Assembly (NCBI GenBank): GCA_964538915.1 | Contig: CAZIFB010000009.1 | Location: 51,506-115,505, forward strand | Direction: 5' to 3' | Length of the DNA stretch: 64,000 bases | Origin: an uncultured candidatus Brocadiaceae bacterium | GTDB taxonomy: Bacteria > Planctomycetota > UBA1135 > UBA2386 | In this document: positions 27,805-60,882 of the stretch, piece by piece | Numbering within the stretch: position 1 is the stretch's first letter | How the letters are laid out: each line of letters starts with the position of its first letter | Made by a program: the position numbers and the translations under genes | Notes under the pieces: model-generated | Seen by the model: only the letters and a program-made list of their open reading frames with translations | The model's database searches: none | What the model was told of the DNA's origin: nothing

Positions 27805-30348
27805 TCAGCGAAACGGGCGCAGCCCCGCGTCGATCTCCCGCTGCAACCGCGCCTTCAGCTCCTCGTCCCCGAGTGCCCGCTGGATGGCGACCCGGCGGAG
27901 CACCGCGCTGACCCATGCCGTTGCCCGCTCGTCGAGTCCGGTGGGCGGCAACAGGTAGGCGAGGTTCGCCAGCTGGTACGCGTCGTCGGGTTCTTCCAGC
28001 AGCGTGGCCGCGAAGGGTCCGATCGCCGCCAGCTTGTCCGACGACGTGAGCGCGAATGCGATTGCACGCCGTTGTCGACCGAGCACCGAGTTGCGGGCGC
28101 GCAAGGCCTCGTCGTACGCCGCGACCGCGCGGACCGCGGCTTCGCGCGAACGCTCGGGGTTCGTCTCCACCAGCGCCATCGCTTCGTCGAGCGCGATGCT
28201 GCCGACGAGGTCGGGCTGCATCCACTCTTCGCCGCGATGACCCGTCTTCGCGAGACCGTTCGCGATCTCGAGTGCTTTGGCGAGGTCGCCGCGCCGCTGC
28301 GCCAGTCGGGCGAGGCCCTGCTGCGTGTTCCACGCGAACGGCCGCAGGCGAAGGGCCTCCCGAAAGTGCCGCTCGGCGTCGTCGAGGCGGCCGAGATTCA
28401 GGAACGAGACGCCGAGGTTCTGGTGCGGCCCGTGGCGCTCGGGTCGGAGTTCGAGCGATCGCTCCAGTTCGGGAACGGCCTGCGCGTAGCGTTTCTGCAG
28501 GATCAGCGCGAGGCCGCGCAGCGCGCACGTGCGGGCCGTGGGCCGGCCGTAGATCGTCTCCAACGCGATCGTCTCGTCGTGCAGACGCTGCTGGACTTCC
28601 GGGCGACCGCCCGCGAGTTCTGCCCACGCGAGCAACCGCAGATCGCGGGCCGGCAAGTACGAGTCCGCCGCGCGGCTCAGCAGCTGTTCGGCACGCGTCG
28701 CGAAGCCCTTCACGTGCCGCGCTCGCAGTTCGTGGAAGCCGGCGACGTAGCAATCCTCCGGCGTCACCGGCGCCGGCAGACCGCTCGTGTCCACCGCCAT
28801 CGCGCCCGTGCGATCGGGGAGGAGACGGAGATACCGGTCGGCAAGTGCGCGCAGGTATTCGCTCCGGCCGTCCGCTGCGATCGTGTGCAGATCGTCCGCC
28901 GCGCCGTCGCGGTCGCCGAGGTCGAGACGAAGGCACGCGCGCCAGAGTCGTACGGGCAGGTCGGACTCGTCCAGTGCGAGGATGTCGTCGAGGAGCCGGA
29001 TCGCGTTGCGGTGCTCCTCGTGCAACGCCGCGAGCACGCGCTCGTCCGGCCATCCCTCGATCGCGAGCACGGAAGGCAGCGTCGCGTAGAGCCGCTGCTT
29101 CTCTGCGGCGGTCTGTTCGCTCCGCTGTCGCAGCAGGACGGGGCCGGCGATGGCGACGGTCGCGATGGCGAGAACGAGTGCGGCGACGGCGACGAGGCGT
29201 GCAGGCGTCCGGCGCCATTGGCGCCATCGGCGCTCGAAGGCTCCGATCGGCCGGGCCTGCACGGGCTGGTGGGCGAGGAAGCGATCGAGGTCCGCCGCCA
29301 GCTCGCTGGCCGTCGGATAACGCGAGGACGGATCGCGTTCGAGGCAGCGCTCGACGATCGCCCGCAGGTCGCGCGGCAACGTGGGGGCCGTCGTCGCGAG
29401 CGGCGTGGGTTCCTGGGTCGGCAGCGCCGCGATGACCGTCGCAGCGTCGCCCTCGTACGGCGGGCGTCCGGCGAGCAGGTGGTACATCGTCGCGCCGAGG
29501 CCATAGACGTCGAGCGTGGGTGACGCGGTGCCCGAACTCCCCGCTCGCACCTGCTCCGGCGGCATGTACCACGGTGTTCCGAGCGTCGTCTGGGTCGCGG
29601 TCAGGCGTTCGTCGTTCGCGCGCGACGCGATGCCGAAGTCGAGCAGCACCGGTCGATCGTCGCTCGTCACGAAGATGTTCGAGGGCTTCACGTCGCGATG
29701 CACCAGATCGCGGTCGTGAGCGGCGGCGAGGCCGCGTGCGACGTCGCGAGCCCAACGTGCGACCACGCGGGTCCAGGGCATCTCGTTCGTTCGGATGCCG
29801 AGCGTCGTCAGCGCCGTGTCCGGGTCCGAACCCGCCGCAGCCTCGAGGATCGTCGCGAGCGTCGCTCCCGCGAGCAGTTCGAGGACGACGAAGTGGATGC
29901 CCTCGGTGGTGCGGCCGCGGTCGAACACCGCGACGACGTTGCGGTGCTGGAGCGCAGCCAGTGCTTCGCCTTCGCGGCGGAAGCGCTGCTCGGCCTGCTC
30001 GTCACGGAACAGCCGCGCATCGAGGATCTTCACCGCCACGTCGCGCTGCAGTTCCTGGTCGCTCGCGCGGTACACGACGCCCATCGCGCCGCGGCCGAGG
30101 CAGGCGAGCAGCCGGTAGCGGCCGGCGAGCAGCAGCCCCGCCAGCGGATCCTCGCGAAGCGCTTCACCCTGAAGGAGCGGCAGCTCGGCGGCCAGACCCA
30201 GGACCTCCGCGAGTGGACGCGCGAGGTGCGGGTGGTCGCGGCACAACGCCGCCGGATCCACGGCCTCGCCGGCGTCCATCTTCGCGAGCGCCTGCCGCAC
30301 GTAGGCGACGAGGCGTTCCTGGTTCTCCGGATCGCGGGCGATGGTCAC
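27805..30348 (-). CDS. Membrane Ser/Thr protein kinase with TPR repeats
   Basis: GRGAMG, VAVK, HRDVKPSN, DFG, GTPWYMPPEQ; TM helix; TPR-like PELERSLELRP...HQNLG..A..HFREALRLRP. Confidence 0.9.
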   Translation of the reverse strand: MTIARDPENQERLVAYVRQALAKMDAGEAVDPAALCRDHPHLARPLAEVLGLAAELPLLQGEALREDPLAGLLLAGRYRLLACLGRGAMGVVYRASDQELQRDVAVKILDARLFRDEQAEQRFRREGEALAALQHRNVVAVFDRGRTTEGIHFVVLELLAGATLATILEAAAGSDPDTALTTLGIRTNEMPWTRVVARWARDVARGLAAAHDRDLVHRDVKPSNIFVTSDDRPVLLDFGIASRANDERLTATQTTLGTPWYMPPEQVRAGSSGTASPTLDVYGLGATMYHLLAGRPPYEGDAATVIAALPTQEPTPLATTAPTLPRDLRAIVERCLERDPSSRYPTASELAADLDRFLAHQPVQARPIGAFERRWRQWRRTPARLVAVAALVLAIATVAIAGPVLLRQRSEQTAAEKQRLYATLPSVLAIEGWPDERVLAALHEEHRNAIRLLDDILALDESDLPVRLWRACLRLDLGDRDGAADDLHTIAADGRSEYLRALADRYLRLLPDRTGAMAVDTSGLPAPVTPEDCYVAGFHELRARHVKGFATRAEQLLSRAADSYLPARDLRLLAWAELAGGRPEVQQRLHDETIALETIYGRPTARTCALRGLALILQKRYAQAVPELERSLELRPERHGPHQNLGVSFLNLGRLDDAERHFREALRLRPFAWNTQQGLARLAQRRGDLAKALEIANGLAKTGHRGEEWMQPDLVGSIALDEAMALVETNPERSREAAVRAVAAYDEALRARNSVLGRQRRAIAFALTSSDKLAAIGPFAATLLEEPDDAYQLANLAYLLPPTGLDERATAWVSAVLRRVAIQRALGDEELKARLQREIDAGLRPFR

Positions 30349-30378
30349 GGTGGGCGGATGGTAGCCCGCCCCGCGCCG

Positions 30379-36692: not shown

Positions 36693-37946
36693 TCAGAGCG
36701 AGTAGAAGCGAGCTTCGAGGTTCGACAGGCGGATGTCGCCGTTGGGGTCGAACGTCGCGAACTGCATGTAGAACGGGAACGGCACGGGGCCGCCGAACAG
36801 CGCGAGCGGCACGAAGCCGAACTGGAACTGACCGGCCGGGTCCAGCTGCCCGGCGACGAACGCCGCAGTGGGGAGGTCGACCAGGAGAGCGCCCACGAAC
36901 GGTGCGCCCAGCTCCGTGTAGGAAGGCGTCAGCCCGAACAGGAACGCGAACGGCGCGGATGGCGCCAAGCCGTCGCACATGATCGTGACCGGCTGCGTCG
37001 AGTCCGTTTCGCCGGACGGCAGGGGCGTCGACGCGAAGACGAGTCGCGGCATCGCGGGGGCGTTGAGCGTCACCGGTCCGAAAACCTGGCCCGACAGCGG
37101 CACCGGTCCATGGACCGTCACTTCGGAGACCGGGTAGAAGCGTTCGTTCGTCAGGCGGACCGCTGCGCCGGGGAAGGCGCCGCCCGCCGTGATGACATCC
37201 GCGGTGCCACCGCTGATCAGGAGACGCGAGTCGTTGCGCACGAAGATCGCGTCACCACCGAGTCCGATGAGGAAGCCAGGCGGCGCGCTGTTCCCGGCGA
37301 TGATGCGGGTGTCCGCGACGCGTGCTCGTGACGAATCGACGACTGCCAGACCCGACCCTCCGGTGCGAGAGCCCGGACCGCTGAACACTCCGGTGATGCT
37401 CCCGCCGAGGATGTCGCAGTCCATGGCGCTGAACTCGCCTCCCTGCACGGTGATCGCGTTGCCGCCGGTCATCGGTCCGCCGAACGGCGGTGGTGGCGGC
37501 GGGCCGATCGCGTCGCCGCCGACGAACCGGCAACGCAGCGCGAACACCTCGGAGAAGCCGCTGACGATCAGTGCGTTCGTACCGTTGAACGCCTGGTTGA
37601 TGCCGACGATCTCGCAGTCGGTCAGCGTCACGTGTGCGGCGTTGTTCGCCCAGAGGTTGCCGTGGATCGTCATGCCGCTGAACACGTCGACCGTGCCTGC
37701 GGGCGTTTGCGTCACGCCATGGGAAGATCCGTTCACGATCGTCGCGCCGATGCCCGCGCCACGGATCGTCAGCGTGCGGCCCGTCATCGCGAACGTCGAG
37801 TACGACCCAGCGCGCACGAGGATCGTGTCGCCATCCGCTGCGGCGGCGATCGCGGCGGGCAGGTCGGTGAAGTGGGAGCCGGGACCGGCTGCTGCGTCGA
37901 CGATCCACGTCATCGGCAGCAACCCCAGAGCGAGTGCGGTGAGCAT
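36693..37946 (-). CDS. Secreted right-handed beta-helix (pectin-lyase-like) protein with C-terminal module; paralog of 48980-50221
   Basis: WIVDAAAGPGSHFTDLPAAIAAAADGDTILVRAGSY start; Gly-rich beta-helix turns; ends IRLSNLEARFYSL. Confidence 0.75.
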   Translation of the reverse strand: MLTALALGLLPMTWIVDAAAGPGSHFTDLPAAIAAAADGDTILVRAGSYSTFAMTGRTLTIRGAGIGATIVNGSSHGVTQTPAGTVDVFSGMTIHGNLWANNAAHVTLTDCEIVGINQAFNGTNALIVSGFSEVFALRCRFVGGDAIGPPPPPPFGGPMTGGNAITVQGGEFSAMDCDILGGSITGVFSGPGSRTGGSGLAVVDSSRARVADTRIIAGNSAPPGFLIGLGGDAIFVRNDSRLLISGGTADVITAGGAFPGAAVRLTNERFYPVSEVTVHGPVPLSGQVFGPVTLNAPAMPRLVFASTPLPSGETDSTQPVTIMCDGLAPSAPFAFLFGLTPSYTELGAPFVGALLVDLPTAAFVAGQLDPAGQFQFGFVPLALFGGPVPFPFYMQFATFDPNGDIRLSNLEARFYSL

Positions 37947-38108: not shown

Positions 38109-40283
38109 TCAGGACATGGCGCGGACGTCGACCGCCACCGCGCCGCTCTCGTAGGCGAACAGCGGGTTGATCTCGAGTTCGACGACTTCCGGGTTGCTGC
38201 GCGCGCACGCCGCCACGGCCATGATCGCGTCGAGCACCGCTTCGCGGTCGACCGCCGGACTGCCGCGATGCCCGCGCAACAGGCGTGCGCCCTTGATCTC
38301 GCCGAGCATCTGCTTCGCGTCGTCGCGCGTGATCGGCAGCAGCCGCAACGTCACGTCCTTCAGCACCTCGACGGTGGTGCCGCCGAGGCCGACGACCAGC
38401 ACGCCGCCGTAGTGCGGATCCTTCTTGTAGCCGACCAGCAGTTCGACCGTCGGCCGCGGCAGCGACGGCGCCACCAGGATGCCGCGGAGATCGGGCACGA
38501 TGCCGCGCTTCTGGCAGTAGCTGCGCACGGCGTCCGAGACCTGCACGAACGTGCGAGCCACGTCGTCGGGGGCGACGCCGACGCGCACTGCTCCGGCTTC
38601 GGTCTTGTGGATCACTCCGGTGGAGACCGCCTTCAGCGCCGCAGCGCCGCCGATCTCGCGCGCCGCCGCCTCCGCTTCGGCTGCGGTCGTGCACAGCGTC
38701 GCCGGTACGACGGTCACTCCGTAGCCGCGCACGAGCTCGCGCGCCTCGGTCTCGAGCAGCACCACGCGCTCCTGTTGCTTGACCACCGACCAGCCGGACC
38801 ATTGGCCCGCGCCGGGAGGCGGTGGGGTGCCACGTCGACGGTCGAGCTGGCGTCCGCGTTCGAACACGGCCGAAGCGCACCGGCACGCGATTTCGAGCGA
38901 AGCGATGACAGGGACGCCGGCGGTCCGCAGCACGTCGAGCGGTTCGCTCGGCGTGTCGGCGTACAGGCTGTGCACGACGAAGGCGCGGCGATGGCGGCGC
39001 GAGGATTCGACCATCGCGTGGGCCGCGGCGACCTCACGCGCCAGGAGCTCCGCGGTGAAGCGGCGGTGGTAGCCGCCGAACAGCCCGACGACCAGCACGG
39101 TGCCGACCTGTTCGTCCTGCATCAGCAGATCGACGGAGCGTGCGAACACCATCGGGTCGCCGTCGGCGGCCCCGCCGAGGTCGACCGGGTTGCGGGCGGG
39201 ACCGTGGAGGCCGAGCTCGCGTTGCAGTTCGGTGGCGGTGGCGACTCCGAACTCGGTCAGTGCGGCCCCGTGGTTCTGCAGCGCGTCGGTGGCGAGCGTG
39301 CCGTGCCCGCCGCCGTCGGTCAGCACCGCGATGCCGCGGTAGCGACCACGCGCCGGCTGACCGGCCAGAGTCTCGGCGGTGTGCAGCAACTCGTCCGAAC
39401 GGCGCACGAGCACGACGCCGCTCTGGCGCAGGCCGGCGCGGAAGACCGGGAACGAGCCCGCCAGTGCCCCGGTGTGCGACCGCGCGGCGTCGGCTCCGCG
39501 GCCGCTGCGGCCGCCTTTCAGCAGGATCACCGGCTTCTTCGGCGTGACCCGTGCGGCGGCCTCGAGGAACTGCTGGCCGCGCCGGAAGCCCTCGACGTAC
39601 ATCGCGATCGCCGCGGTGTTGGGTTCGTCGGCGAGATAGTCGAGGTACTCGTCGAAGCGCAGGTCGATCTCGTTGCCGACGCCGATCACCAGCGAGAACC
39701 CGGCGCGCGTGCGTCGCATCGCCTCGGTCAGCACCTGCAGCGTGACGTTGCCGCTCTGGCCGAGCAGCGCGATCCTGCCGGCCGGCACGTCGGCGACGCC
39801 GATCAGGTTGACACCGCGATGCGGATTGAGGATGCCGCTGGTGTTCGGCCCGATCACGCGGATCCCGGTGTCGCGCACGACTGCCTGGATCTCGCGTTCG
39901 AGCTGCTCGCCCGCGGGCCCTGCTTCGCGGAAGCCGAGTGCCACGACGACGGCGCCCACGACGCCCTTGGCTGCACACTCGGCCAGCGCCTTCGGCACGC
40001 TCGCCGCGGGAGTGCAGACCAGCGCGGTGTCGACGTCGGGCGGCAGTTCGTCCAGCGAACGGAGGAACTCACACCCGTGGGCGTTGCCGCCCTTCGGATT
40101 GACGCCGTGGACGGTGCCTGCGTATCCGGCCTGGCGGAGCGCCGCGAGCGCCTGGTTGCCGCGCTTCTTCGCGTCGACGGAGGCGCCGACGACGACGATG
40201 CCGCGCGGGCGGAAGATGCGATCGAGCGACTGGTTCGCCGCCGACGGCGTCGATGCGTCACTCACCGGTGAACTCCGGCTCAC
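38109..40283 (-). CDS. NDP-forming acyl-CoA synthetase (acetate-CoA ligase family, CoA-binding plus ATP-grasp fusion)
   Basis: VVGAS....KRG, IGPNTSG, LGQSGNV, GNEIDL, LKGGRS..GA.AA.SHTGALAG, HKTEAGAV, ELEINPL; start may be GTG 40265. Confidence 0.9.
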   Translation of the reverse strand: MSRSSPVSDASTPSAANQSLDRIFRPRGIVVVGASVDAKKRGNQALAALRQAGYAGTVHGVNPKGGNAHGCEFLRSLDELPPDVDTALVCTPAASVPKALAECAAKGVVGAVVVALGFREAGPAGEQLEREIQAVVRDTGIRVIGPNTSGILNPHRGVNLIGVADVPAGRIALLGQSGNVTLQVLTEAMRRTRAGFSLVIGVGNEIDLRFDEYLDYLADEPNTAAIAMYVEGFRRGQQFLEAAARVTPKKPVILLKGGRSGRGADAARSHTGALAGSFPVFRAGLRQSGVVLVRRSDELLHTAETLAGQPARGRYRGIAVLTDGGGHGTLATDALQNHGAALTEFGVATATELQRELGLHGPARNPVDLGGAADGDPMVFARSVDLLMQDEQVGTVLVVGLFGGYHRRFTAELLAREVAAAHAMVESSRRHRRAFVVHSLYADTPSEPLDVLRTAGVPVIASLEIACRCASAVFERGRQLDRRRGTPPPPGAGQWSGWSVVKQQERVVLLETEARELVRGYGVTVVPATLCTTAAEAEAAAREIGGAAALKAVSTGVIHKTEAGAVRVGVAPDDVARTFVQVSDAVRSYCQKRGIVPDLRGILVAPSLPRPTVELLVGYKKDPHYGGVLVVGLGGTTVEVLKDVTLRLLPITRDDAKQMLGEIKGARLLRGHRGSPAVDREAVLDAIMAVAACARSNPEVVELEINPLFAYESGAVAVDVRAMS

Positions 40284-41037
40284 GCTTCTCGGCGAATGCG
40301 GTGATGCCCTCGCGCCAGTCCCGCGTCTGCATGCACGCGAGCAACGCGTCGGCCTCGGCGGCGAGCACGCCGTCGAGCGGGAGTTCGGTGGCCTTCTGCA
40401 GCAGCTGCTTGCCGAGCGTCAGCGAGCGCGGCGCCTTCTTCGCAAGCTCCTCGGCCAGCGCGATGGCAGCCGGCAGCACGCGTTCCGGCGACTCCGCGAA
40501 GTTGCACACGCCGTTCGCCGCGGCCTCGCTGCCGAGGAAGAAGCGGCCGAGCAGCAGCAGTTCGCGCGCCTTGGCCGCGCCGGTGCGCGCCAGCAGCGTC
40601 GCCGTGGCGCCGCCGCCGACGAACGTGCCCAGTCCGAACTCGGGGAAGCGCAGTTTCGCCGAGTCCGCGACCACCGACAGATCGCACGCGAGAGCCAGCT
40701 CGAGCCCGGCGCCGATCGCGTGGCCGTTCAGCGCCGCGACGATCGGGCATCGATGCCGCAGGATGGCGCTCGCGGCGCGCTGGCCGAGTTCGACGTAGTG
40801 ACGGCGCGCGGCGACATCACGTTCGGTCTCGTTGTGGCCGTGCAGATCGGCACCGACGCAGAAGGCGCGCCCGGCGCCGGTCAGCACGATCGCTCGAACG
40901 GCACGATCGGCAGCGGCGTCGTCGAGTGCTGCCAACAGAGCCGTGTACATCGCCTCGTTGACGGCATTCAGCCGTTCGGGCCGGTTCAGCGTCAGCTGCA
41001 CGATGGCGCCGCGGCGTTCCGCGAGGAGCGTCTGCAT
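40258..41037 (-). CDS. Enoyl-CoA hydratase/isomerase (crotonase) family protein
   Basis: LTLNRPERLNA, LTGAGRAFCVGADL, NGHAIGAGLELALACD, FPEFGLG; both catalytic Glu positions present; GAGGAG SD. Confidence 0.92.
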   Translation of the reverse strand: MQTLLAERRGAIVQLTLNRPERLNAVNEAMYTALLAALDDAAADRAVRAIVLTGAGRAFCVGADLHGHNETERDVAARRHYVELGQRAASAILRHRCPIVAALNGHAIGAGLELALACDLSVVADSAKLRFPEFGLGTFVGGGATATLLARTGAAKARELLLLGRFFLGSEAAANGVCNFAESPERVLPAAIALAEELAKKAPRSLTLGKQLLQKATELPLDGVLAAEADALLACMQTRDWREGITAFAEKREPEFTGE

Positions 41038-41203
41038 CTCCTCATGATGCATCGATCGACTGTCCACGCAAGGTTGCTCGTCCCCGGTCGCGAGTCTCGT
41101 GCTAGCCTGGGTGGCCCGTTCGCGCGCATCGCGGCGTCGTCCGAGTGCGCGCCTTTGTTCCACCCTGCGGCCGAACGGTCGCCCAACAAAGCAGGACAGC
41201 ACG

Positions 41204-42610
41204 ATGCCGAAGCTGATCAAGGTCGCGCCACGCAAGTTCAGAGTCTTCACCCGCCGCGACCTCGATCGCATTCCGCAGCTGCAGCGCTTCAGCGCCGACG
41301 ACCTGTTGGCGATGAAGGCAGTCGCCTGTGTCCTTCCCTTCCGCGTCAACGAGTATGTCTGCGACGAACTGATCGACTGGGAACGGGTGCCGGAGGATCC
41401 GATCTTCCAGCTGACGTTCCCGCAGCCGGGCATGCTGGGAGCGAAGGACCTCGCGCGCATGATCGATCTGCTGCGCGATGACGCCAGTGAGGCCGAGATC
41501 CAGCAGGAAGCGCGCCGCATCCAGACTTCGCTCAATCCGCACCCCGCGGGTCAGGTCGAGCTGAACGTGCCGCGGCTCGAGGGCACGGCGCTGCCGGGCA
41601 TGCAGCACAAGTACCGCGAGACCGTGCTGTTCTTCCCCAGCAGCGGTCAGACGTGCCACACCTACTGCACCTACTGCTTCCGCTGGCCGCAGTTCGTCGG
41701 TCTCGACGAGCTGAAGTTCGCCGCGCGCGAAGCGGACCAACTGGTCGCCTACCTCCGCGAGCATCCCGAGGTCAACAGCGTGCTGTTCACCGGCGGTGAC
41801 CCGATGGTGATGAAGACGCGCGTGCTGCGGCGCTACGTCGAACCGCTGCTGGCCGCGGACCTCGACCACATCGTCAGCATCCGGATCGGCACGAAGGCAC
41901 CGGCGTACTGGCCGCAGCGTTTCACCACCGACGACGACGCCGACGACCTGATGCGTCTGTTCGAACAGGTCGCCCGGGCCGGACGTCACCTCGCGATCAT
42001 GGCCCACTTCAGCCATCCGCGTGAGCTCGACACTCCGACCGCGCAGGCCGCCATCGACCGGTTGCGCAACGCCGACACCGTCGTGCGTTGCCAGGCGCCT
42101 CTGATCCGCCGCGTCAACGACGATGCGCAGACGTGGGCGGACATGTGGAAGCGCCAGATCGTGCTGGGCGCGGTGCCGTACTACATGTTCGTCGAGCGCG
42201 ACACCGGGCCGAAGCACTACTTCGAGGTGCCGCTCGCCCGCGCCTACGACATCTTCACCACGGCCTACCGGCGCGTCTCCGGCCTCGGCCGTACCGTGCG
42301 CGGCCCGTCGATGTCGGCGACGCCGGGCAAGGTCCTGGTCGACGGCGTCGCCGAAGTGCACGGCGAGAAGGTGTTCGTCCTGAAGTTCCTGCAGGCCCGC
42401 GACCCGGCCTGGGTCAACCGAGTGTTCTTCGCCAAGTACGACGAGAAGGCGACGTGGCTCGATCACCTGCAGCCGGCGTTCGGCGAGAAGGAGTGGTGGT
42501 TCCAGCCCACGATCCGCGAGATGAAGAAGCAGGGCTGGCAGCCGTCGTGGGGCGACCGGTCGCGCGCGAAGAAGCGCGTGACGCAGTTCGGCCACGTCGA
42601 GTGGGAGTAG
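41204..42610 (+). CDS. KamA-family radical SAM/PLP aminomutase-like enzyme
   Basis: LPFRVNEY, DPIFQLTFP, HKYRETVL, CHTYCTYC (CxxxCxxC), VLFTGGDP, IRIGTK, PYYMF, PGK lysine. Confidence 0.88.
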   Translation: MPKLIKVAPRKFRVFTRRDLDRIPQLQRFSADDLLAMKAVACVLPFRVNEYVCDELIDWERVPEDPIFQLTFPQPGMLGAKDLARMIDLLRDDASEAEIQQEARRIQTSLNPHPAGQVELNVPRLEGTALPGMQHKYRETVLFFPSSGQTCHTYCTYCFRWPQFVGLDELKFAAREADQLVAYLREHPEVNSVLFTGGDPMVMKTRVLRRYVEPLLAADLDHIVSIRIGTKAPAYWPQRFTTDDDADDLMRLFEQVARAGRHLAIMAHFSHPRELDTPTAQAAIDRLRNADTVVRCQAPLIRRVNDDAQTWADMWKRQIVLGAVPYYMFVERDTGPKHYFEVPLARAYDIFTTAYRRVSGLGRTVRGPSMSATPGKVLVDGVAEVHGEKVFVLKFLQARDPAWVNRVFFAKYDEKATWLDHLQPAFGEKEWWFQPTIREMKKQGWQPSWGDRSRAKKRVTQFGHVEWE

Positions 42611-42751
42611 GCGGCTCGCTCGAGCGGGCGGCCGCGCCGATGCCGCGCGATGCGCGGCAGCCCGGTTCCCGGTGCTGGTGGCGAGGGGCGCCGGTGGATT
42701 CTCGGGTTCTTTCCGTACATTCCGGCCAGCCCGGGCATCCACCGAGCGCCG

Positions 42752-45700
42752 ATGCTCCCGACCGACGTCCAGCTCTTCCGCCGCTACGCGACGGCCGCCG
42801 ATCGCGCCGCACTGGACGAGCTGTTCGGCCGCCACTACGCGGCCGTGCTCCGCCTCGCCGCGAAGCTCCTGCCCGAGCCCGCCGACGCCGCGGATGTCGC
42901 TCAGTCGACGTTTCTCGCCGCCATCCGCGCCGGCCGAGACGCGCTCCCGACCGATTCCTTCCGCGCGTGGCTGCTCGGGATCGCCGTCAACGAGGTGCGG
43001 CAGTTTCTCCGCACGCGACGCCGCCAGCGTCGCGATCCGCTGGCCGAGGTCGTGCGTGCTGCTGCGGACGACCTCGTTCCGGACGCCGCCGCGCGCCGCG
43101 AATTCGAACGCGCGCTGGAAGACTCGCTGCGTCTCCTGCCCCAGCACCTGAAAGAACCCGTAGCGCTCCACTTCTACGAAGCGCTGCCGCTCGCCGACGT
43201 AGCCGCCGTGCTGGGCCTGCCGAAGAGCACCGTGCAGACCCGCATCACCGCCGCGGTCGAGCGTGTGCGCCGGTCCCTGCGCCGCGCGGGCCACGCCGCC
43301 CTCGTGCCGTTGTTCGACGCCCGCATCACCATCCCCGCGCCCGCGAACGCCGCCGCCGGCCTCAGCCATCTGCTCGCCTGGACCATGTCCACCAAGCTCC
43401 CCGTCGTCGCCGGCGTCGCGATCCTCGTTGCCGGACTCTTCGCCCTCGTCGCGATCTGGCCTCCTGCACCGGCACCCGAACAACGCACCAGCGCGAGCAC
43501 GCCGGACGCCGCGAGTGCATCACCGCTGCTCGTGGTCGGCGACCAGGTGGCACCGAGCCGGGTGCCCGACGCGCTCACCGCCGCCGGTGACGTCGCGCGC
43601 GAAGTCTTCGGTCTGGTCCTGCGCGAAGGCGGCGAACCGATCGTCGGGGCGACCGTGCGCCTGTTCGACTATGCCGCCGACCGCACCGAAGACGCGCTCA
43701 CGGACTCCGGCGGCCGTTTCCGCTTCGCCAGCACCCGGGATCGCGACGGCGTTTTCCACCTCGTCGCCGAGAAGTCCGGCAGCGGTCGCCGCACGGTCGC
43801 CGACGTGATCGCGTCCCTGCAACCGCTGCGCTGCGTCCTCCAGTCGGACCTGACGATCCGCGGCCGCGTCGTGGATGCCGTCGGCGGCGGACCCATCGCG
43901 GCGTTCACGGTCGAGGCGGTGCGCCTGCCGTTCCAGCGCGAAGCCGACTGGGATCCGGCCCTCGTGCTGCATCGCCAGAGTCTGCCCGCGAGGCTGCTCG
44001 TCGATCGGCGCGCCGAAGTGGTCGACCCGGACGGCCGCTTCGAACTGCCCGACCTCGAGACGGGCCGCTACCTGCTCGTCGTCACCACCGAGGGTCGCCA
44101 GCCGGTGTCCTTCGCAGCGGGTGGTCGCTCCTGGGATCGCTTCGCCGGCGTCGAGGCGCTGCCGCGCGCGGCGGCAACCGAGCACACCATCGTGCTACCC
44201 GTGCCCGGCCACATCGTCGTGCAGGCCGTGGAGGCGGCGAACGGCACCCCGATCGCCGGCGCCACCGTGCGTCTGGACTGCGCGTTCGGCGATCTGGCGT
44301 TCCCGTGCACCGCGACGACGACCGATGGCGACGGACGTGCCGTCGTGTCCGTCGCGCTGGATGCGCGCGGCGGGATCGAGGACGTCGCGCTGACCGTGAG
44401 TGCGCCGGGCCTTGCACCGGCGAGCACCAGCTTCAGCGGCCAGGAGAACGGTTTCACCATCACCCTCGCACTCGCGCGCCCGGCGGCGCTGCACGGCCGC
44501 GTGCTCGGTGCCGATGGCGCGCCGGTGTCCGGCGCCGCGATCCTGGTCGAACGCGTCGTCGATCGCACGCTGCTCCGGCGGGCGCGCAGCGACGCCGACG
44601 GGCGCTACGCCATCGCCGGCCTGCACGCCGCGAGTGCAACCACGCTGCACTGCCTGTCGCCGGCACTCGACCACGTCACCGCCACACTGCCGCTGAAGCT
44701 CGAGGACGGCGAGACGCGCTACCTCGACATCGACCTGCGCGGAGCCGCCGGCGTCGTCGGGAGAGTGGCGGTCGGCGGTGTTCAGGCGGCCGGCGCGCTG
44801 GTCGCCATGCACGCCGAACGCGGTGGCATCCGCGTCGACTGCACGACGCGGCGCGACGGTGCGTACGCGTTCGCCGGCCTGCCGGAGGGCCGTTACGAAA
44901 TGACGGTGACCACGGAATGGCTCGGGCGGCAGCTCGCGTCGCGGACACCGATCGAGGTCGGCCTCGCCATGCAGGAGCGCGACTTCGATTTCGCGCAACG
45001 CGTGACCGGCCGCGTCGTCGCCGTGGCGGCGGGCGGTCGGGAGGCGCCGCAGGCGCCGGGGGCCGAGGTCGTGGCGACGCACCTCACCGATCGGACCACG
45101 ATCGAGGTCGACGCGGAGGACGACGGCAGCTTCGCGGTGCTGCTCGCGGCGCCCGGCCCATGGGAACTGCACGCGCAGCGCGGCGACGAGACGTTCCCGG
45201 TGCGCCCGCAGCGGATCGAGGTCCGCGACGGGGCGGCGATCGACGGTGTCGAACTCCTGTTCGCCTCGGATCCCGCCGACGGTCGCATCGAGGTGCGTTT
45301 CGTCGACGCGAAGAGCGGCGCGCCCGTCAGCGGCGAGCTGCGTTTCTCGCACGGTCGCTCGTGGACGGCCGCGAGCTTCGAAGACGGTGTGTACGTCGAG
45401 GAGAAGGCGCTGCTCGGTCGCTACCGCTTCACGGCGACGACGGACGAGCACCGGCCGACGCCCTTCGAAGTCGAACTGCTGCCGGGGCAGCGGGAAGTTG
45501 TCTTGTCGGTGCCGCTCGTTGCGGCGAGCGAGGTCGAGATCGTCGAGGTCGCGGCGGGCAGCGCGGCTCACCGCGCGGGCCTTCGTGCGGGCGATCGGCC
45601 GCGCCGCTACGGCGCAACGGCGATCCACAGCATCGCCGGGCTGCGCGCCGCGATCGCAGCGCACCCGGGGCCGACGACTCTCGCGGTCCTTCGCGACGGC

Positions 45701-45763
45701 GCGGAACTCGCCGTCCCGGTGCCGGGCGGCGCGCTCGGCATCCAGGTCGAGAACGTTCGCTGA
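42752..45763 (+). CDS. ECF sigma factor fused to a TM helix, carboxypeptidase-regulatory-like repeats and a C-terminal PDZ domain
   Basis: AADVAQSTFL, FRAWLLGIAVN, DVAAVLGLPKSTVQTRI; TM VVAGVAILVAGLFALVAIW; repeated G.V....G.P(I/V).GA.V; VEVAAGSAAHRAGLRAGD. Confidence 0.85.
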   Translation: MLPTDVQLFRRYATAADRAALDELFGRHYAAVLRLAAKLLPEPADAADVAQSTFLAAIRAGRDALPTDSFRAWLLGIAVNEVRQFLRTRRRQRRDPLAEVVRAAADDLVPDAAARREFERALEDSLRLLPQHLKEPVALHFYEALPLADVAAVLGLPKSTVQTRITAAVERVRRSLRRAGHAALVPLFDARITIPAPANAAAGLSHLLAWTMSTKLPVVAGVAILVAGLFALVAIWPPAPAPEQRTSASTPDAASASPLLVVGDQVAPSRVPDALTAAGDVAREVFGLVLREGGEPIVGATVRLFDYAADRTEDALTDSGGRFRFASTRDRDGVFHLVAEKSGSGRRTVADVIASLQPLRCVLQSDLTIRGRVVDAVGGGPIAAFTVEAVRLPFQREADWDPALVLHRQSLPARLLVDRRAEVVDPDGRFELPDLETGRYLLVVTTEGRQPVSFAAGGRSWDRFAGVEALPRAAATEHTIVLPVPGHIVVQAVEAANGTPIAGATVRLDCAFGDLAFPCTATTTDGDGRAVVSVALDARGGIEDVALTVSAPGLAPASTSFSGQENGFTITLALARPAALHGRVLGADGAPVSGAAILVERVVDRTLLRRARSDADGRYAIAGLHAASATTLHCLSPALDHVTATLPLKLEDGETRYLDIDLRGAAGVVGRVAVGGVQAAGALVAMHAERGGIRVDCTTRRDGAYAFAGLPEGRYEMTVTTEWLGRQLASRTPIEVGLAMQERDFDFAQRVTGRVVAVAAGGREAPQAPGAEVVATHLTDRTTIEVDAEDDGSFAVLLAAPGPWELHAQRGDETFPVRPQRIEVRDGAAIDGVELLFASDPADGRIEVRFVDAKSGAPVSGELRFSHGRSWTAASFEDGVYVEEKALLGRYRFTATTDEHRPTPFEVELLPGQREVVLSVPLVAASEVEIVEVAAGSAAHRAGLRAGDRPRRYGATAIHSIAGLRAAIAAHPGPTTLAVLRDGAELAVPVPGGALGIQVENVR

Positions 45764-46099: not shown

Positions 46100-47227
46100 C
46101 TACTGGAACGCGAGTTCGATCGCGTTCGACAGCCCCCAGCCCTGGGGCAGTGTTGCATCGAGATACGCGAACTGCGCGAAGATCGTCGGCAGGCCGGTCG
46201 CGCCGGTGAGCCCGTCGTCCCAGAGCCAGGTTCCCTGCGCGTCCAGCAGGGCGATCTGGGCGTGGAAGATCGGCACGGGGACCAGAGTGCCGCCGAAGAT
46301 CGGGACCGGCGCGTTCTGGGTTCCGAAGGCGACGAGGCCGAGGCCGCCGGGCGGGGCGCCCGAGACCCGCATGTCGGTCGTCGTGCCGACGAGGTTCAAC
46401 GGGCCGCCGCAGGCGGACAGCACCGACGTTCCCGGACCCTGGAAGCCGAGGTTGGTCTGGCAGAGGTTGGCCGCGCGAATCGCGTCCACGTGGGCGATGA
46501 CCTCGCGCAACGTGACTTCGGCCGCCTGTCGGGCCAGCGTCCACGACAGGCTGCGGCCGACGTGCACGTGCCCGGCCGTGACGCACCAGGCCGGATCGGT
46601 GGGCGACTCGTGGATGTCCTGGTACCAGACGCCGTGGTACGCGATGAACTCGGAAAGGAAGCCGCCGCCGTTGCCCGTGTAGCAGACGTACGGATTGACC
46701 GGCAGCCCGGCCGCGAAGATCGCCGTCACGATGTTCTGCACCGGCAGCGTGCTCGGCCGCAGAGCGTCCGGCGGAATGGACCCGTCGGGCGGACTGCGCG
46801 TCGGCTGCGTCGGCGCCACGTAGTCGTTCGCCCAGACCGTGCGGTTGTACTGGTTCATCTCGAGCTCCCACGTGATCTGCGTGGACGAGCGCGAGAACGT
46901 GATGACCGCGATCGGTTGCAGAGCGTTCGCGATCGACCAGAAGTCGGCCGACGTGTCCTGGTAGTCGACGGTCAGGTTGCCGCTCCCGGTTCCGCAGGTC
47001 GTGCACGTCGGCGGCGAGAACTCGGGGTGGTACGCGTGGATGTCGTACCCGCGGCCCTCCCAGTTCGCGCCGATCCATCCGCCGGGGTTCTGCGTCGGGT
47101 CGGGGTTCCACTGGCGGATCGCTTCGTTGCTCGGTGGCCAGTAGCCGGTGAGCAGGATCTTCGGCAGCTGTGCCCGCGCCGTCGCGACACACAGCAAGGG
47201 GACGACCGCGATCGAGAGTCGGTTCAT
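46100..47227 (-). CDS. Secreted pyroglutamyl-peptidase I (C15)-like protein with C-terminal module
   Basis: Signal ending ARAQ; KILLTGYWPP, STLPVQNIV, GGGFLSEFIAY, AGHVHV; Ser at the usual Cys nucleophile position. Confidence 0.7.
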   Translation of the reverse strand: MNRLSIAVVPLLCVATARAQLPKILLTGYWPPSNEAIRQWNPDPTQNPGGWIGANWEGRGYDIHAYHPEFSPPTCTTCGTGSGNLTVDYQDTSADFWSIANALQPIAVITFSRSSTQITWELEMNQYNRTVWANDYVAPTQPTRSPPDGSIPPDALRPSTLPVQNIVTAIFAAGLPVNPYVCYTGNGGGFLSEFIAYHGVWYQDIHESPTDPAWCVTAGHVHVGRSLSWTLARQAAEVTLREVIAHVDAIRAANLCQTNLGFQGPGTSVLSACGGPLNLVGTTTDMRVSGAPPGGLGLVAFGTQNAPVPIFGGTLVPVPIFHAQIALLDAQGTWLWDDGLTGATGLPTIFAQFAYLDATLPQGWGLSNAIELAFQ

Positions 47228-47443
47228 CACGACGAGAGCCTCAGGGGATCCGAATGGCGAACCGTGCTCCGAGCGGCGCCGCACCACGCGGCGCCAGCGT
47301 GGGGCACGGTTGGCGGCGCAGGATAGCAGATCGATCGCCGGCCGAACTTCGGCGGCATCGAGGCGTGTCGTCGCCTGCCTTGCGTATCGCCGGCCGCACG
47401 ACGCGCCGGCCACTTCTTCGTCAGTCGGATGCCGGTCCTCGCA

Positions 47444-50307: not shown

Positions 50308-52938
50308 TCAGCGCTGCTCGCGCAGCCGTGCGAGCGCCGCGCGCGCCTTCTCACGCGAAGCGGGGGGCACCTTTTCCTCGTCACGCAACGCCGCTTCGAG
50401 CAGTTCGATCGCCTGCTGCGCGTGACCGTTCGCCGCCTCGGCTCGGCCCCAGAGAGCGCGTTCGCGAGGCGTGATGGACTTGTCCACTGCGCGCGCCTGC
50501 TCTACCGCCCTCGCCGCCCCCGTCGCGTCCATCGGGCGAACCTCGAGGCAGACTTCGGCGAGGCGCCACCACGGGCCGTCGTTGTCCGGAGCGATGCGCG
50601 TCGCTCGTTCGGCGCTCTCGCGCGCGACGTCCGGGAGTTCGGCCTCGAGGGCCCGCAGGGCCAGCGTCATGCACCTCGCGTAGTCGTCGGCCGCCGCGAA
50701 CGTGTTGGCGCGCACCTCCGCGACGAACGCCTCCTCGACTCGATCGAGGCGCTTCAGGCTGCGCGCCATGCATGCGTACGGAGCCGACTGGGTGGGGGCG
50801 AGCCTGGCTGCTGTTTCGAACTGGGCGAGTGCCCCTTCCTCGTCGCTCAGTTCGTGCAGCACGAGGCCGAGGTTCTGCGCATGCTTCCAGTCGCCTCCGT
50901 CCAGTTCTCGTGCGCGCTCCAGCGGGGCGCGGGCTTCGGCCGGCTTGCCGGTTTCCATGAGAATCGCACCCTCCAGCCCGTGCGCGGAACCCATCTTCGG
51001 ATCGACGGCGATCGCCCGGCGCGCAGCCTCGACGGCGCCGTTCGGGTCCTTCGCCGATCGCCGCCACCGGGCGAGCGTTTCCCACGCTCGTGCGTTGTCG
51101 GGTTGCAGTTCGAGGGCGCGCTCGAACGCCGCGATCGCCTCCGCGGTCCGGTTCGCGCGCGCCAGGTAGTGTCCGCGGGCGAGAAGGAAGCGCGGATCCG
51201 TGTCGAGTCCGGTCGCCGATACCGCCGCGAGGCCGCGTTCGATCGGCGCCACCGCCGACCCGAACGCGTACAGCAGCTGGAAGCCGCGGGTGTCGGGAAA
51301 GAACTGCTCGTACGCCGCGAGTGCGTTCGCGAACGCGTCTGCGTCGTTGGCGCGCGCGGCGGCGATGGACCACTGCAGCAACAACCACGCGCGCGGCTTC
51401 GGGGAGAGTGCGACGGCCCGGCCGTACCACTTCGCGGCGTGATGGTAGAAGATCGTGCCGCGGTGGTACGACTTCTCCTGTTCGGCCGCGATGTGGCCGA
51501 GCACCGCACACTCGAGCGTCGTCGACGCCTCCACGTCCTCGAAGCGGAACGGGAGGTCCTTGCCGCCGCCGTCGAGCAGCAGCCGCACGAGTTCGTGGAT
51601 CCTGGTCCCGGCGAAGGCGCTGAGCATCGTTCCTGCCTTCTGCGGTGTGTCCGTCCATGTCCACAGGGCACACATCGCGAGGCGGACCTCGAGATCCGTC
51701 GGATCGCCGCTCCAGGGTTCCAGCTCGCGCAGACCGTCGCGCGGCCGTTCGTCGTTGAGCGCCACCCACGCGGTCGTCAACGCGCGCTCGCGCTGCTCCT
51801 CGCGTTCGGCGCGCGCCGCAGCCTCGATGCGCGGCGCGTTCGCCCACAGGTAGCCGCCGACGACGGCCAGCAACGGAACGCCGATCGCGAGCAGCGCGGC
51901 GGCGAGTGCGCGCCAGGGTTCGCGCCGTGCCCAGCGGCGCAGACGCTCGGTCGCGGTCGGCAGACGCGCCGCGACCGGCGCACCCTGCTGCCACGCCCGC
52001 AGGTCGGCCAGGAACGCGACCGCGCTGGGGTATCGCCGCACCGGGTCCTTCTCGAGGGCGCGCGCGCAGATCGCGGCGAGGTCGTCGTCGATCCCCGTCG
52101 CGCCGCGCAAGCCGGCCGGGTCCTGCGTGAGGATCGCGTGCAGCGTGGCCGTCGCGGTTTCCGAGGCGAACGGATGGCGCCCGATGAGCAGTTCGGCGAG
52201 CACGACGCCCGTCGACCAGACGTCGACGCGCGCATCCACCTTCTGCCCCTGGATCTGCTCCGGCGCCGCGTAGTCCAGCGTGCCGAGGAACCCGCCTTCG
52301 ACGGTGACGGTCGGCGAATGCACGTCGCGGGCGAGGCCGAAGTCGGTCAGCACCACCTGGCCGTCGGTGCGCACGAGCACGTTCGCCGGCTTGACGTCGC
52401 GGTGCACGAGGCCGGTGGCGTGTGCGTGCTGCAACGCGTCGAGGACGCGCGCTGCGAGTTCGACGGCGGCACGCGGCTCGCGGAAACGTTCGCGGCAGCG
52501 GTAGAGCGGTTGGCCTTCCACCAGCTCCATCGCGAACCAGTTCACGTCGCCGTCGCGACCCACTCCGAACACCTCGACGATGCCCGGGTGGCGCAGCTTC
52601 GCGGTCGCGGCCGCCTCGCGGTGGAAGCGTGCGATCGCGGCGGAGTCGGCGGTGAGCGCGGGCGCGAGGATCTTCAGCGCTACCTTGCGACCCAGCGACT
52701 GCTGCCAAGCGGAGTACACGACGCCCATGCCGCCGCGGCCGAGTTCGGCGTCGATGCGGAAGTCGCCGATCACCCGCGTCGTCGTGGCGCCGTCGCGTTC
52801 CGCGAGCATGGGCTCCAGCAGTTCGCGCAGCTCGGGGTGCGCCGCGAGGAGGGCGTCGTCGTCGCGCGTGCTGGTCTCGACGTGAGCGAGCCACACCTCG
52901 AGGGCTCGTTCGAGGCGCGAGGAATCGGCGCGGCTCAT
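50308..52938 (-). CDS. Membrane Ser/Thr protein kinase with TPR repeats
   Basis: GRGGMG, VALK, HRDVKPAN, DFG, GTLDYAAPEQ; TM helix; multiple TPRs (AFERALELQPDNARAW); ATG overlaps the sigma TGA. Confidence 0.9.
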   Translation of the reverse strand: MSRADSSRLERALEVWLAHVETSTRDDDALLAAHPELRELLEPMLAERDGATTTRVIGDFRIDAELGRGGMGVVYSAWQQSLGRKVALKILAPALTADSAAIARFHREAAATAKLRHPGIVEVFGVGRDGDVNWFAMELVEGQPLYRCRERFREPRAAVELAARVLDALQHAHATGLVHRDVKPANVLVRTDGQVVLTDFGLARDVHSPTVTVEGGFLGTLDYAAPEQIQGQKVDARVDVWSTGVVLAELLIGRHPFASETATATLHAILTQDPAGLRGATGIDDDLAAICARALEKDPVRRYPSAVAFLADLRAWQQGAPVAARLPTATERLRRWARREPWRALAAALLAIGVPLLAVVGGYLWANAPRIEAAARAEREEQRERALTTAWVALNDERPRDGLRELEPWSGDPTDLEVRLAMCALWTWTDTPQKAGTMLSAFAGTRIHELVRLLLDGGGKDLPFRFEDVEASTTLECAVLGHIAAEQEKSYHRGTIFYHHAAKWYGRAVALSPKPRAWLLLQWSIAAARANDADAFANALAAYEQFFPDTRGFQLLYAFGSAVAPIERGLAAVSATGLDTDPRFLLARGHYLARANRTAEAIAAFERALELQPDNARAWETLARWRRSAKDPNGAVEAARRAIAVDPKMGSAHGLEGAILMETGKPAEARAPLERARELDGGDWKHAQNLGLVLHELSDEEGALAQFETAARLAPTQSAPYACMARSLKRLDRVEEAFVAEVRANTFAAADDYARCMTLALRALEAELPDVARESAERATRIAPDNDGPWWRLAEVCLEVRPMDATGAARAVEQARAVDKSITPRERALWGRAEAANGHAQQAIELLEAALRDEEKVPPASREKARAALARLREQR

Positions 52939-53564
52939 GTGCCCGGCACCTCGGGCACGTCGCCCGAACGCAGCGATCGCATGATGTCCGCCAGTCGTGC
53001 AACTGCGCGCACCCAGCGCATCCGCACCGCGTTCGCCGTCATGCCGAACTCTTCGCCGAGATGGACGAACGAGCGGTCCTCGAATTCGCGCGCGACGACG
53101 AGGCGACGATCCTCGGCGTCGAGCAGTTCGAGACCGAGCCGTACCCACTCCCGCAGTTCGCCGCGGCTCGCGTCGCGGCTGGGCGTGGCGCTCGTGGCGA
53201 GCGCGGGATCGAGCGCGAGCACGCTCTCGCTCGGCAACGGCGCATCGCGGCCGAGGTCGCGGCGCTTCGCGCGGTACCAGTCGTTGCGGTCGCGGAGGGT
53301 GTTCTCGACGACTCTCGCCAGGAGGCTGCGGAACTGCACGCCGTCGCGGACCTGGAAGCGTGGACCGTCGCGCAGGAACTCGAGCACCGCGGCCTGCAGG
53401 TAGTCCTCCGGCTCCTCGCGCTGGCGGAGGAAGGCGCCGACGCGGCGCTCGAGGTGCTCGCGAAGCCAGGGCAGGTGCGCTTCGACCAGCGCGGGCAGCG
53501 CCGCCGGGTCGCCTGCGTGCCACCGCCGCAGCAGCTCCTGGGTCGGTTCGGCGTCAGCCGGCAT
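52935..53564 (-). CDS. ECF RNA polymerase sigma factor (planctomycete kinase-associated type)
   Basis: [34 protein letters not shown], region 4 [22 protein letters not shown]. Confidence 0.9.
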
Positions 53565-53572
53565 GGGCCCGG

Positions 53573-53601
53573 ATTCCAGGCGGTAAAGGAAGGCGGGTCA
53601 A
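53573..53601 (-). promoter_or_regulatory. Candidate promoter TTGACC-N17-TGGAAT, 8 nt before the sigma ATG
   Basis: Near-consensus -35 with exact 17-nt spacer; no SD. Confidence 0.5.
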
Positions 53602-60175: not shown

Positions 60176-60234
60176 CCGCAACACCCTAGCGCCGGCCGCT
60201 GGCGACGCCGAGACCGTCTGCTCATGATCCGCGA

Positions 60235-60882
60235 ATGGAAGACGACTCGCGCCGCGACGAGCGGGCCGAAGGTGACCACGGAACGACGTCGCACCATCTG
60301 CGCGGCGCGGTCGCCGGGGACATGACCGCGCTCGACGAACTCGTGCGCCGCGTGACGCCGCTGCTCCTGTCCGCGGCGTCGTACCGCCTTCGCAGCCTCG
60401 CGGGTCGCGCCTGCGAACCGATGGATCTGGTGCAGGACGTCTGGATGCGCACGCTGCCACGGCTCGGCCAGCTCCGCGAACGCGACGGCCGGCTCACGCC
60501 CGTGCTGCTGGCCTGGCTCGGAACGACGTTGCGCCGGCGCGCACGCGATCTGCTCGAGACCGCGCTGCGGCGGCATCGCACGGTGCCACTGGCGGACGCG
60601 GACGACGCGCTGCCCGAAGTTCCGGAAGCGACGCGCGGCGTCGTGTCGCGCGTGGTGTACGCCGAGAACCGCGGCCTGGTCGACACTGCCCTGGAAGCGC
60701 TCTCGGACTCGGATCGTGAGATCGTGCTGCTGCGGGGAGTCGAGCAGGTCCCCGTCGTCGAGGTCGCCACGCTGCTCGCGATCACTCCGAGCGCGGTGAA
60801 GATGCGCTACCTGCGTGCGCTCCAGCACCTTCGCGAGGAGGTGCCCCGTTCGATCTTCGACGAACTCGATGACGCGGACTGA
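60235..60882 (+). CDS. ECF RNA polymerase sigma factor
   Basis: AVAGD..ALDEL, EPMDLVQDVW, region 4 LSDSDREIVLLR...VEVATLLAITPSAVKMRYLRAL. Confidence 0.9.
   Translation: MEDDSRRDERAEGDHGTTSHHLRGAVAGDMTALDELVRRVTPLLLSAASYRLRSLAGRACEPMDLVQDVWMRTLPRLGQLRERDGRLTPVLLAWLGTTLRRRARDLLETALRRHRTVPLADADDALPEVPEATRGVVSRVVYAENRGLVDTALEALSDSDREIVLLRGVEQVPVVEVATLLAITPSAVKMRYLRALQHLREEVPRSIFDELDDAD

Follow-up and report, generated by a model that had tools for sequence, protein, structure and literature searches.

Do three adjacent genes of an uncultured bacterium, encoding a KamA-like radical S-adenosylmethionine (SAM) protein, a crotonase-fold enoyl-coenzyme A (CoA) hydratase/lyase (ECH) and an ADP-forming acyl-CoA synthetase (ACD, here called the ligase), constitute a single route through a beta-amino acid, or do they merely lie side by side? 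The question is raised by a stretch of 64,000 nucleotides of a candidatus Brocadiaceae bacterium (GenBank assembly GCA_964538915.1, contig CAZIFB010000009.1, positions 51,506 to 115,505 of the forward strand), the whole of which is called the window. A preliminary description of this DNA had recognized the three genes, which we confirmed by domain scans and by their G+C content at third codon positions (GC3), and had proposed that they form a compact beta-amino-acid route. We found that they are two separate units, i.e., the crotonase-ligase pair and the KamA-like gene, which is usually alone. To the reading that we prefer, in which these two independently conserved units cooperate in a CoA-dependent beta-amino-acid route, we give a chance of about four in ten on the strength of sequence comparisons; a functional link of the three genes is plausible.

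Linkage of the Three Genes in Other Genomes

The evidence for a link comes from the Ignavibacteria and Bacteroidota. In locus L143, an ECH gene, a ligase gene and a KamA-like gene follow each other on one strand, the last two being separated by 6 nt, and the KamA-like product is 55% identical to that of the window; its KamA relatives belong to metagenome-assembled genomes (MAGs) of Bacteroidota/Ignavibacteriae. In all four Ignavibacteria/Bacteroidota lineages examined, the ligase gene directly precedes the KamA-like gene. The full trio lies between allantoin genes and a Cho-like nuclease gene in L171 and L172 (100% KamA identity). L173 (90%) shows a ligase gene cut by the contig end and then the KamA-like gene, with downstream synteny shared with L171. 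In L174 (74%), the ligase and KamA-like genes are 38 nt apart, the ECH gene is lost to the contig end, and other genes lie downstream. Finally, L175 (73%) keeps the complete order ECH, ligase, KamA, with a gap of 129 nt before the last gene, between an ABC transporter and a DNA polymerase B gene. All these ligase and KamA-like genes are co-directional, with gaps ranging from 6 to 129 nt, and the two available crotonases of the clade are 55% identical. The operon thus persists through 73-75% KamA and 67-73% ligase identity while its flanks change. Three differing flanking contexts (L171/L173, L174 and L175) in which only the trio is retained are a signature of selection for co-expression, and the conservation of the trio as an operon in a distant bacterial group makes a new beta-amino-acid route plausible.

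The window offers a second, independent adjacency, in an arrangement different from that of the Ignavibacteria/Bacteroidota operon and unique among planctomycetes. As a cluster, this divergent arrangement is not conserved. Indeed, the closest relatives of the KamA-like gene are otherwise flanked: the divergent neighbor of the 90% identical relative (L083) encodes a large secreted protein without identified family, those of 86-87% identity (L081, L084-86) have a Lactamase_B gene upstream and a Der GTPase gene downstream, and that of 83% (L082) has exosortase genes among its neighbors. These unrelated neighbors, together with the absence of the window's flanking synteny from all of the 175 fetched loci, rule out a conserved cluster of the planctomycete lineage.

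The KamA-like Protein and Its Subfamily

To judge from profile scores, the window protein is a member of a divergent KamA subfamily. Its score against the "KamA family" model TIGR00238 (142.1 bits) lies below the curated cut-off of 199.2 bits, and the substrate-specific equivalogs are all far under their own cut-offs, i.e., AblA (104 bits against 525), EpmB (112 against 369), AblA-like-2 (112 against 396), the arginine model (95 against 600) and glutamate 2,3-aminomutase (TIGR04368, 80.8 against 650). The AlphaFold (AF2) model of the protein (predicted local distance difference test, pLDDT, 82.8; predicted template-modeling score, pTM, 0.85) has as its best match in the PDB the lysine 2,3-aminomutase (LAM) structure 2A5H (Foldseek E 3.8e-16, about 417 aligned columns), the next matches being at E~1e-5; the template-modeling score to 2A5H, normalized to LAM, is 0.64. 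In a profile alignment to 2A5H, the CxxxCxxC motif and the alpha-carboxylate-binding R134 of LAM pair with C151/C155/C158 and R160, and the cluster motif sits in a LAM-like partial TIM barrel. In the same alignment, the Asp found at position D293 of LAM is replaced by R332. Among the 93 members aligned, C151, C155, C158, R160, R332 and K376 are invariant, and S369 is kept in 90.

We presume K376 to be the lysine that binds pyridoxal 5'-phosphate (PLP), K337 in LAM, on account of its same spacing from the SG motif, and S369 to occupy the D330 position of LAM, from a manual spacing-based alignment; the hidden Markov model alignments end at about residue 355-362, before K376 and S369. A phmmer search of the C-terminal 143 aa against solved-structure sequences gave no match even at E<=10. 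Sister subfamilies of 33-40% identity likewise retain K376 but not the ERDTGP motif. On the whole, the protein shares with the LAM of Clostridium subterminale (KamA) its fold, its cluster motif, its carboxylate-binding Arg and, presumably, a Lys at the spacing of the PLP lysine, whereas it is only 19% identical to it, carries some 35 inserted residues ahead of the barrel as well as a conserved C-terminal domain of its own (about 100 aa, ending GHVEWE), lacks the zinc-site Cys268 and the C-terminal Cys triad, and is usually encoded without pathway neighbors.

In LAM, D293 and D330 reportedly hold the ε-ammonium group of lysine, and glutamate 2,3-aminomutase is said to have Lys and Asn in place of these two Asp. 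An invariant Arg at the first position and an apparent Ser at the second therefore make lysine an unlikely substrate and favor an acidic or small one. Judged by these residues, the KamA-like protein is clearly not lysine-specific, and it would be unable to bind lysine as LAM does. The glutamate 2,3-aminomutase of Clostridioides difficile (EamA) likewise belongs to the KamA family and reportedly replaces the two Asp by a basic and a small polar residue; the residues differ, however (Arg/Ser against Lys/Asn), and the two enzymes are not orthologous.

The subfamily is widespread. At least 8000 protein clusters at 90% identity match it in public data, and 374 representatives of a 50%-identity library do so at E<=1e-30. 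At least 597 loci in representative genomes hold a relative, the best 80 of them 57-80% identical to the window protein, and the identity of 57-90% across many phyla reflects an unusually high conservation. These phyla comprise Planctomycetota, Verrucomicrobiota, Acidobacteriota, Gemmatimonadota, Myxococcota, Gammaproteobacteria (Marinobacter, Halomonas/Billgrantia, Ectothiorhodospira, Thiohalocapsa), Actinomycetota (Nocardiopsis, Nonomuraea), Cyanobacteria (Nostoc, Scytonema), Bacteroidota and Chloroflexota. Members are also found in Nitrosopumilales, which are ammonia-oxidizing archaea (P0282, P0327 and P0347, about 69% identical to the Ignavibacteria KamA-like proteins); carbon fixation in these archaea likewise involves a crotonase and an ADP-forming 3-hydroxypropionate-CoA ligase. 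Halophiles and haloalkaliphiles are enriched (Marinobacter, Halomonas/Billgrantia, Ectothiorhodospiraceae, Thiohalocapsa, Nocardiopsis and MAGs from soda-lake sediment), and the carriers are mostly aerobes and halophiles. Since the family is so conserved in such organisms, it probably makes a common but overlooked beta-amino acid, and the interest of the locus lies more securely in this orphan mutase family. In the searchable literature, we found no description of the trio, of this KamA subfamily or of KamA in Nitrosopumilus.

The neighborhood of the mutase gene was followed in the best 80 of the at least 597 representative loci, for up to 8 kb in either direction, i.e., about 1 Mb of flank. 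Clustering of the open reading frames (ORFs) at two stringencies found nothing conserved in these loci, a Pfam census of 69 upstream and 77 downstream neighbors found no family in more than five loci, and the partners of the LAM pathways did not recur. Genes for MscS, Na+/H+ exchangers or antiporters, Trk, glutamate dehydrogenase and aminotransferases are sporadic neighbors.

Two fusions were observed in passing among the library representatives. P0365 (882 aa) joins an N-terminal L-lysine/L-ornithine N-monooxygenase (PF13434, E 2.5e-100) to a C-terminal subfamily domain that is 55% identical and keeps ERDTGP and PGK; in some lineages, the subfamily may thus be connected with siderophore-type chemistry or N-hydroxylated amino acids. 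In P0509 (464 aa, truncated), a 2Fe-2S ferredoxin domain of the adrenodoxin type is fused to a KamA-like N-terminal half that belongs to this family. The fusion suggests a built-in electron donor, and the sequence, which looks eukaryotic, suggests that the family may extend beyond prokaryotes.

The Crotonase-Ligase Pair

The second unit was examined in 84 ligase-centered loci (4 retrieved by exact look-up and 80 by scanning metagenomes). An orthologous crotonase gene lies directly upstream of the ligase gene, on the same strand, in 74 of them, and 10 of the 84 have no room upstream. This adjacency persists down to 38% ligase identity, and ECH and ACD are thus a near-obligate adjacent pair. Nothing else is conserved around it, for the same kind of search brought out only a sporadic second ECH gene, which makes the pair a self-contained module. 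In about 13 metagenome loci (L120, L123, L125, L136, L139, L141, L146, L149, L154, L156, L160, L164 and L165), the gene immediately after that of the ligase encodes a second, more distant crotonase (27-34% identity), and the order is ECH-ACD-ECH. In a Gemmatimonadota locus (L090, 1-9160), an AtuA gene, an AtuA_ferredoxin-like gene and a second ECH gene precede the pair, a possible larger acyl-CoA cluster in that lineage.

The ligase has the CoA-binding, CoA-ligase and ATP-grasp domains of the ACD superfamily and two His motifs, His264 (SHTGA) and His553 (HKTEAGG), that are invariant in the alignment of ligase homologs and that we take to be the phospho-histidine sites of ACD structures. Its best sequence matches in the PDB are 9Y43, an ADP-forming 3-hydroxypropionate-CoA ligase (E 5.8e-90), and 8WZU, a 4-hydroxybutyrate-CoA ligase. 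A DddX-type dimethylsulfoniopropionate lyase role is disfavored, 7CM9 reaching only 222 bits, below the hydroxy-acid ligases. The crotonase, whose best PDB match is the 3-hydroxypropionyl-CoA dehydratase 5ZAI, has both catalytic Glu motifs (GAGLELAL and FPEFGLG; compare E144/E164 of rat ECH) and a Val in place of the usual Pro in LGTFVGGG. These three features are conserved in 44 ligase-linked crotonase orthologs.

Proposed Route and Substrate

A precedent for the route is the CoA-dependent degradation of beta-valine in Pseudomonas sp. SBV1, which is biochemically established and relies on the ligase BvaA and on BvaB1/BvaB2, enoyl-CoA hydratase homologs in which both catalytic Glu are retained and the loop Pro is missing (PMC4619459). 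These enzymes equilibrate beta-valinyl-CoA with 3-methylcrotonyl-CoA, the lyase reaction settling at about 40% conversion (PMC4619459). The logic would be the same in the proposed route, i.e., a beta-amino acid is converted into its CoA thioester and then into a 2-enoyl-CoA and ammonia by a lyase of the ECH family. The Bva crotonases and that of the window are alike in their two Glu and missing Pro. On the other hand, BvaA is AMP-forming and PaaK-like whereas the window ligase is ADP-forming, and the Bva pathway has no aminomutase. By analogy, the trio would be best classed as a KamA-type aminomutase joined to a Bva-like CoA-dependent lyase route.

In a first step, as the family and the conserved residues suggest, the 5'-deoxyadenosyl radical derived from the [4Fe-4S] cluster and SAM would, together with PLP, shift the alpha-amino group of a free amino acid to C3; this substrate would be other than lysine, most likely acidic or small and neutral. 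In a second step, the ligase would turn the beta-amino acid into its CoA thioester through a phospho-histidine. In a third step, by analogy with BvaB1/B2, the crotonase would eliminate ammonia to give a 2-enoyl-CoA, and/or hydrate it to a 3-hydroxyacyl-CoA; the ligase, being reversible, might then set the acid free and recover ATP. The mutase stands alone in the majority of organisms, where its product would probably have other fates, for instance as a compatible solute, the hydratase-ligase pair being an add-on that is physically linked to it only in some lineages.

The conversion of glutamate into beta-glutamate is our leading guess for the first step, albeit one more apt to be wrong than right, and it would give glutaconyl-CoA at the third. 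The active-site residues and the halophile-rich spread point weakly to it: the guess rests on the Arg/Ser pattern at the lysine-binding positions, on the halophile-rich distribution and on the sporadic MscS, Na+/H+-exchanger, Trk, glutamate-dehydrogenase and aminotransferase neighbors. It rests also on earlier work, in which beta-glutamate was found in Nocardiopsis and an equilibrium between beta-glutamyl-CoA and glutaconyl-CoA plus ammonia was proposed in methanogens (PMC1224877). Alanine and beta-alanine are an alternative that would agree with the resemblance between the pair and 3-hydroxypropionate enzymes. A bolder version holds that the 468-aa subfamily is a new, non-orthologous 2,3-aminomutase (the second for glutamate or the first natural one for alanine), that it forms with the pair an ATP-neutral three-enzyme route to an enoyl- or 3-hydroxyacyl-CoA (or acid) and ammonia, and that its product is widely used, for instance as an osmolyte; taken as a whole, this would seem doubtful.

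If the two units are linked, they would provide a redox-free, CoA-dependent way to deaminate an alpha-amino acid and a second example of crotonase-type ammonia lyases. The ligase would then be, to our knowledge, the first ADP-forming one to activate a beta-amino acid. The proposed activities are of interest for the biocatalysis of beta-amino acids and 3-hydroxy acids. If the units are not linked, the trio is an ordinary juxtaposition and the interest remains only in the orphan mutase family.

Alternative Explanations

The foremost alternative is that the genes are chance neighbors, the KamA-like gene being unrelated and placed by rearrangement next to an ordinary module that activates short-chain hydroxy acids or enoates, for instance 3-hydroxypropionate, acrylate or 4-hydroxybutyrate, into a CoA ester and then an enoyl-CoA. 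We hold this to be a serious, if second, possibility, and a series of results weighs in its favor and against a cooperation of the two units. The preliminary description had made its proposal depend on the co-occurrence of the three genes in other genomes, and the outcome is mixed, the Ignavibacteria/Bacteroidota operon standing on the favorable side. Tblastn searches with the window crotonase and ligase found neither near the 80 KamA loci (+/-8 kb, E<=1e-10), and no hydratase or ligase lies within 8 kb of any of 86 other KamA-family loci, including those of relatives 83-90% identical. Reciprocally, about 525 kb of sequence around 76 ECH-ACD modules contains a single KamA-like gene, that of L143. 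Both units are present, unlinked, in at least four related planctomycete MAGs: the module and the mutase are on different contigs in GCA_020638655.1, and, as judged by GenBank accession blocks, both units belong to the same MAG in three further planctomycete or related lineages (MBX3461933/MBX3462013; MGE3173530/MGE3172751 and MGE3353360/MGE3351160, which are one lineage in two assemblies; and MCR9245294/MCR9243675). In the planctomycete clade, the two units co-occur and are normally unlinked; their presence in the same genome counts in favor of a cooperation, their lack of linkage against it. Moreover, the taxonomic range of the mutase (with named matches in Marinobacter, Nostoc, Nocardiopsis and Nitrosopumilales) is much wider than that of the ligase subfamily, so most mutases work without the ligase.

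The enzymes themselves can be read in the same way. The pair is most similar to 3-hydroxypropionate and 4-hydroxybutyrate ligases and to 3-hydroxypropionyl-CoA dehydratase, which fits an ordinary hydroxy-acid module, and the pair of Glu with the missing Pro fits a lyase but does not separate it from a hydratase. As for glutamate, its aminomutase model gives the lowest score of the six KamA models (81 bits against 650). A crotonase is also paired with an ADP-forming synthetase in the thaumarchaeal and crenarchaeal 3-hydroxypropionate-CoA ligase and 3-hydroxypropionyl-CoA dehydratase (9Y43, 8WZU, 5ZAI); the domain order of 9Y43 is, however, permuted relative to the window ligase, and the context of the window is bacterial, with no carbon-fixation genes nearby. 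The self-contained nature of the pair, the lack of flanking synteny and the lack of functional clustering in the window also agree with chance. On the contrary, the scores of the ligase fall far short of the equivalog cut-offs for acetate, 3-hydroxypropionate and 4-hydroxybutyrate ligases (350-410 bits, or about 300 in the comparison with the archaeal pair, against 1200-1300), and a tight trio operon kept in Ignavibacteria/Bacteroidota despite changed flanks would hardly be expected unless co-expression were selected for. The compact route that had been proposed is thus partly supported, by this operon and by the beta-valine precedent, but not by the arrangement of the window, which is not conserved. 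It is on this balance that we keep to the cooperation of two independently conserved units.

The units could also be linked in the biosynthetic direction: the crotonase would add ammonia to an enoyl-CoA to give a beta-aminoacyl-CoA, the ligase would free the beta-amino acid with formation of ATP, and the mutase would equilibrate the alpha and beta forms, supplying an osmolyte or a precursor. ACDs are reversible and classically ATP-yielding, the partial conversion at equilibrium of the beta-valinyl-CoA lyase (PMC4619459) would allow it, a sequence from glutaconyl-CoA through beta-glutamyl-CoA to beta-glutamate has been proposed for methanogens (PMC1224877), and the halophile-rich mutase family with its sporadic MscS, Na+/H+ antiporter and Trk neighbors would suit an osmolyte. 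We nevertheless find this improbable, since a CoA route to a beta-amino acid would be redundant if the mutase is present; moreover, the genes nearby offer no source of the enoyl-CoA, and sequence does not tell the direction.

Finally, it is very improbable that the database label is correct and that the protein makes beta-lysine, for although close homologs are publicly recorded as "lysine 2,3-aminomutase" (or "KamA family") and the fold and cofactor motifs are LAM-like, roles in lysine fermentation, elongation factor P (EF-P) modification or Nε-acetyl-beta-lysine synthesis are ruled out by the residues (invariant Arg for D293, apparent Ser for D330, no zinc-site or C-terminal Cys), by the AblA, EpmB and AblA-like scores (104-112 bits against 369-525) and by the context, the window having no kamDE, kdd, kce, kal, epmA, efp or ablB.

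Organization of the Locus

The G+C content of the window is about 70%, and the closest protein matches of its genes are in Planctomycetota MAGs. The three ORFs all have a coding-type GC3 (0.84-0.89) and a clear domain match each (Table 1).

Table 1. Features of the window discussed in the text, with positions in the 64-kb stretch.
Feature	Position	Strand	Basis or remark
Fused (alpha+beta) ADP/NDP-forming acyl-CoA synthetase	38109..40283	-	CoA_binding_2 + Succ_CoA_lig + ATP-grasp_5 (Pfam)
Crotonase-fold enoyl-CoA hydratase/lyase, 264 aa	40258..41052	-	ECH_1 E 1.6e-56; translationally coupled to the ligase gene
Divergent intergenic region, 151 bp	41053..41203	.	Direct reading; 166 bp if crotonase ATG = 41037
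KamA-family radical-SAM protein, 468 aa; presumed PLP-dependent amino-acid 2,3-aminomutase, non-lysine subfamily	41204..42610	+	TIGR00238 142 bits
Long ORF, high GC3	36693-37946	-	No Pfam or NCBIfam match
Long ORF, high GC3	46100-47413	-	No Pfam or NCBIfam match
Long ORF, high GC3	5392-10692		No Pfam or NCBIfam match
ORF, 1037 aa, resembling a sigma/anti-sigma-like fusion	42650-45763	+	Extracytoplasmic function (ECF) sigma regions 2 + 4, transmembrane segment, 4 CarboxypepD_reg repeats, C-terminal PDZ
Large Ser/Thr protein kinase	2590-5391	-	
Large Ser/Thr protein kinase	27805-30378	-	
Large Ser/Thr protein kinase	50308-53553	-	
Large Ser/Thr protein kinase	57314-60493	-	
Small ECF-sigma-like ORF	52935-53597		Adjoins one kinase
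Small ECF-sigma-like ORF	60190-60882		Adjoins one kinase

The starts of two genes leave some latitude, which bears on two details of the preliminary description. The divergent gap of 166 bp holds with the alternative crotonase start and becomes 151 bp with ATG 41052. The overlap of the hydratase and ligase genes (26 nt) holds if the ligase starts at GTG 40283 (724 aa) and gives way to a 2-nt spacer with GTG 40265 (718 aa), the start adopted in the public gene call P0121; whichever start applies, the coupling of the two genes is tight, as in the homologous loci. Only weak imperfect inverted repeats were found in the intergenic region, with no convincing operator. The usual aminomutase partners had been reported missing, and this stands: 38 ORFs spread over the 64-kb window were scanned with Pfam, and none showed a domain of kamDE (B12-type aminomutase subunits), EF-P/EpmA, GNAT, non-ribosomal peptide synthetases, kdd, kce or kal. 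The other genes of the window are unrelated (ClpB, ECF sigma fusions, Ser/Thr kinases, IspD, NadC and similar), and no functional clustering was apparent among those scanned.

Among these other genes, the long ORFs without match include those on both sides of the trio, neither of which has a homolog in the 175 fetched loci. The 1037-aa ORF looks like a sigma/anti-sigma-like fusion from its domains; an 871-aa ORF of similar architecture lies near the ECH-ACD pair in locus L089, and a separate ECF sigma gene follows the KamA gene in locus L001. Two of the four large kinases have a fused C-terminal FGE-sulfatase (formylglycine-generating-enzyme-like) domain, and two have TPR repeats.

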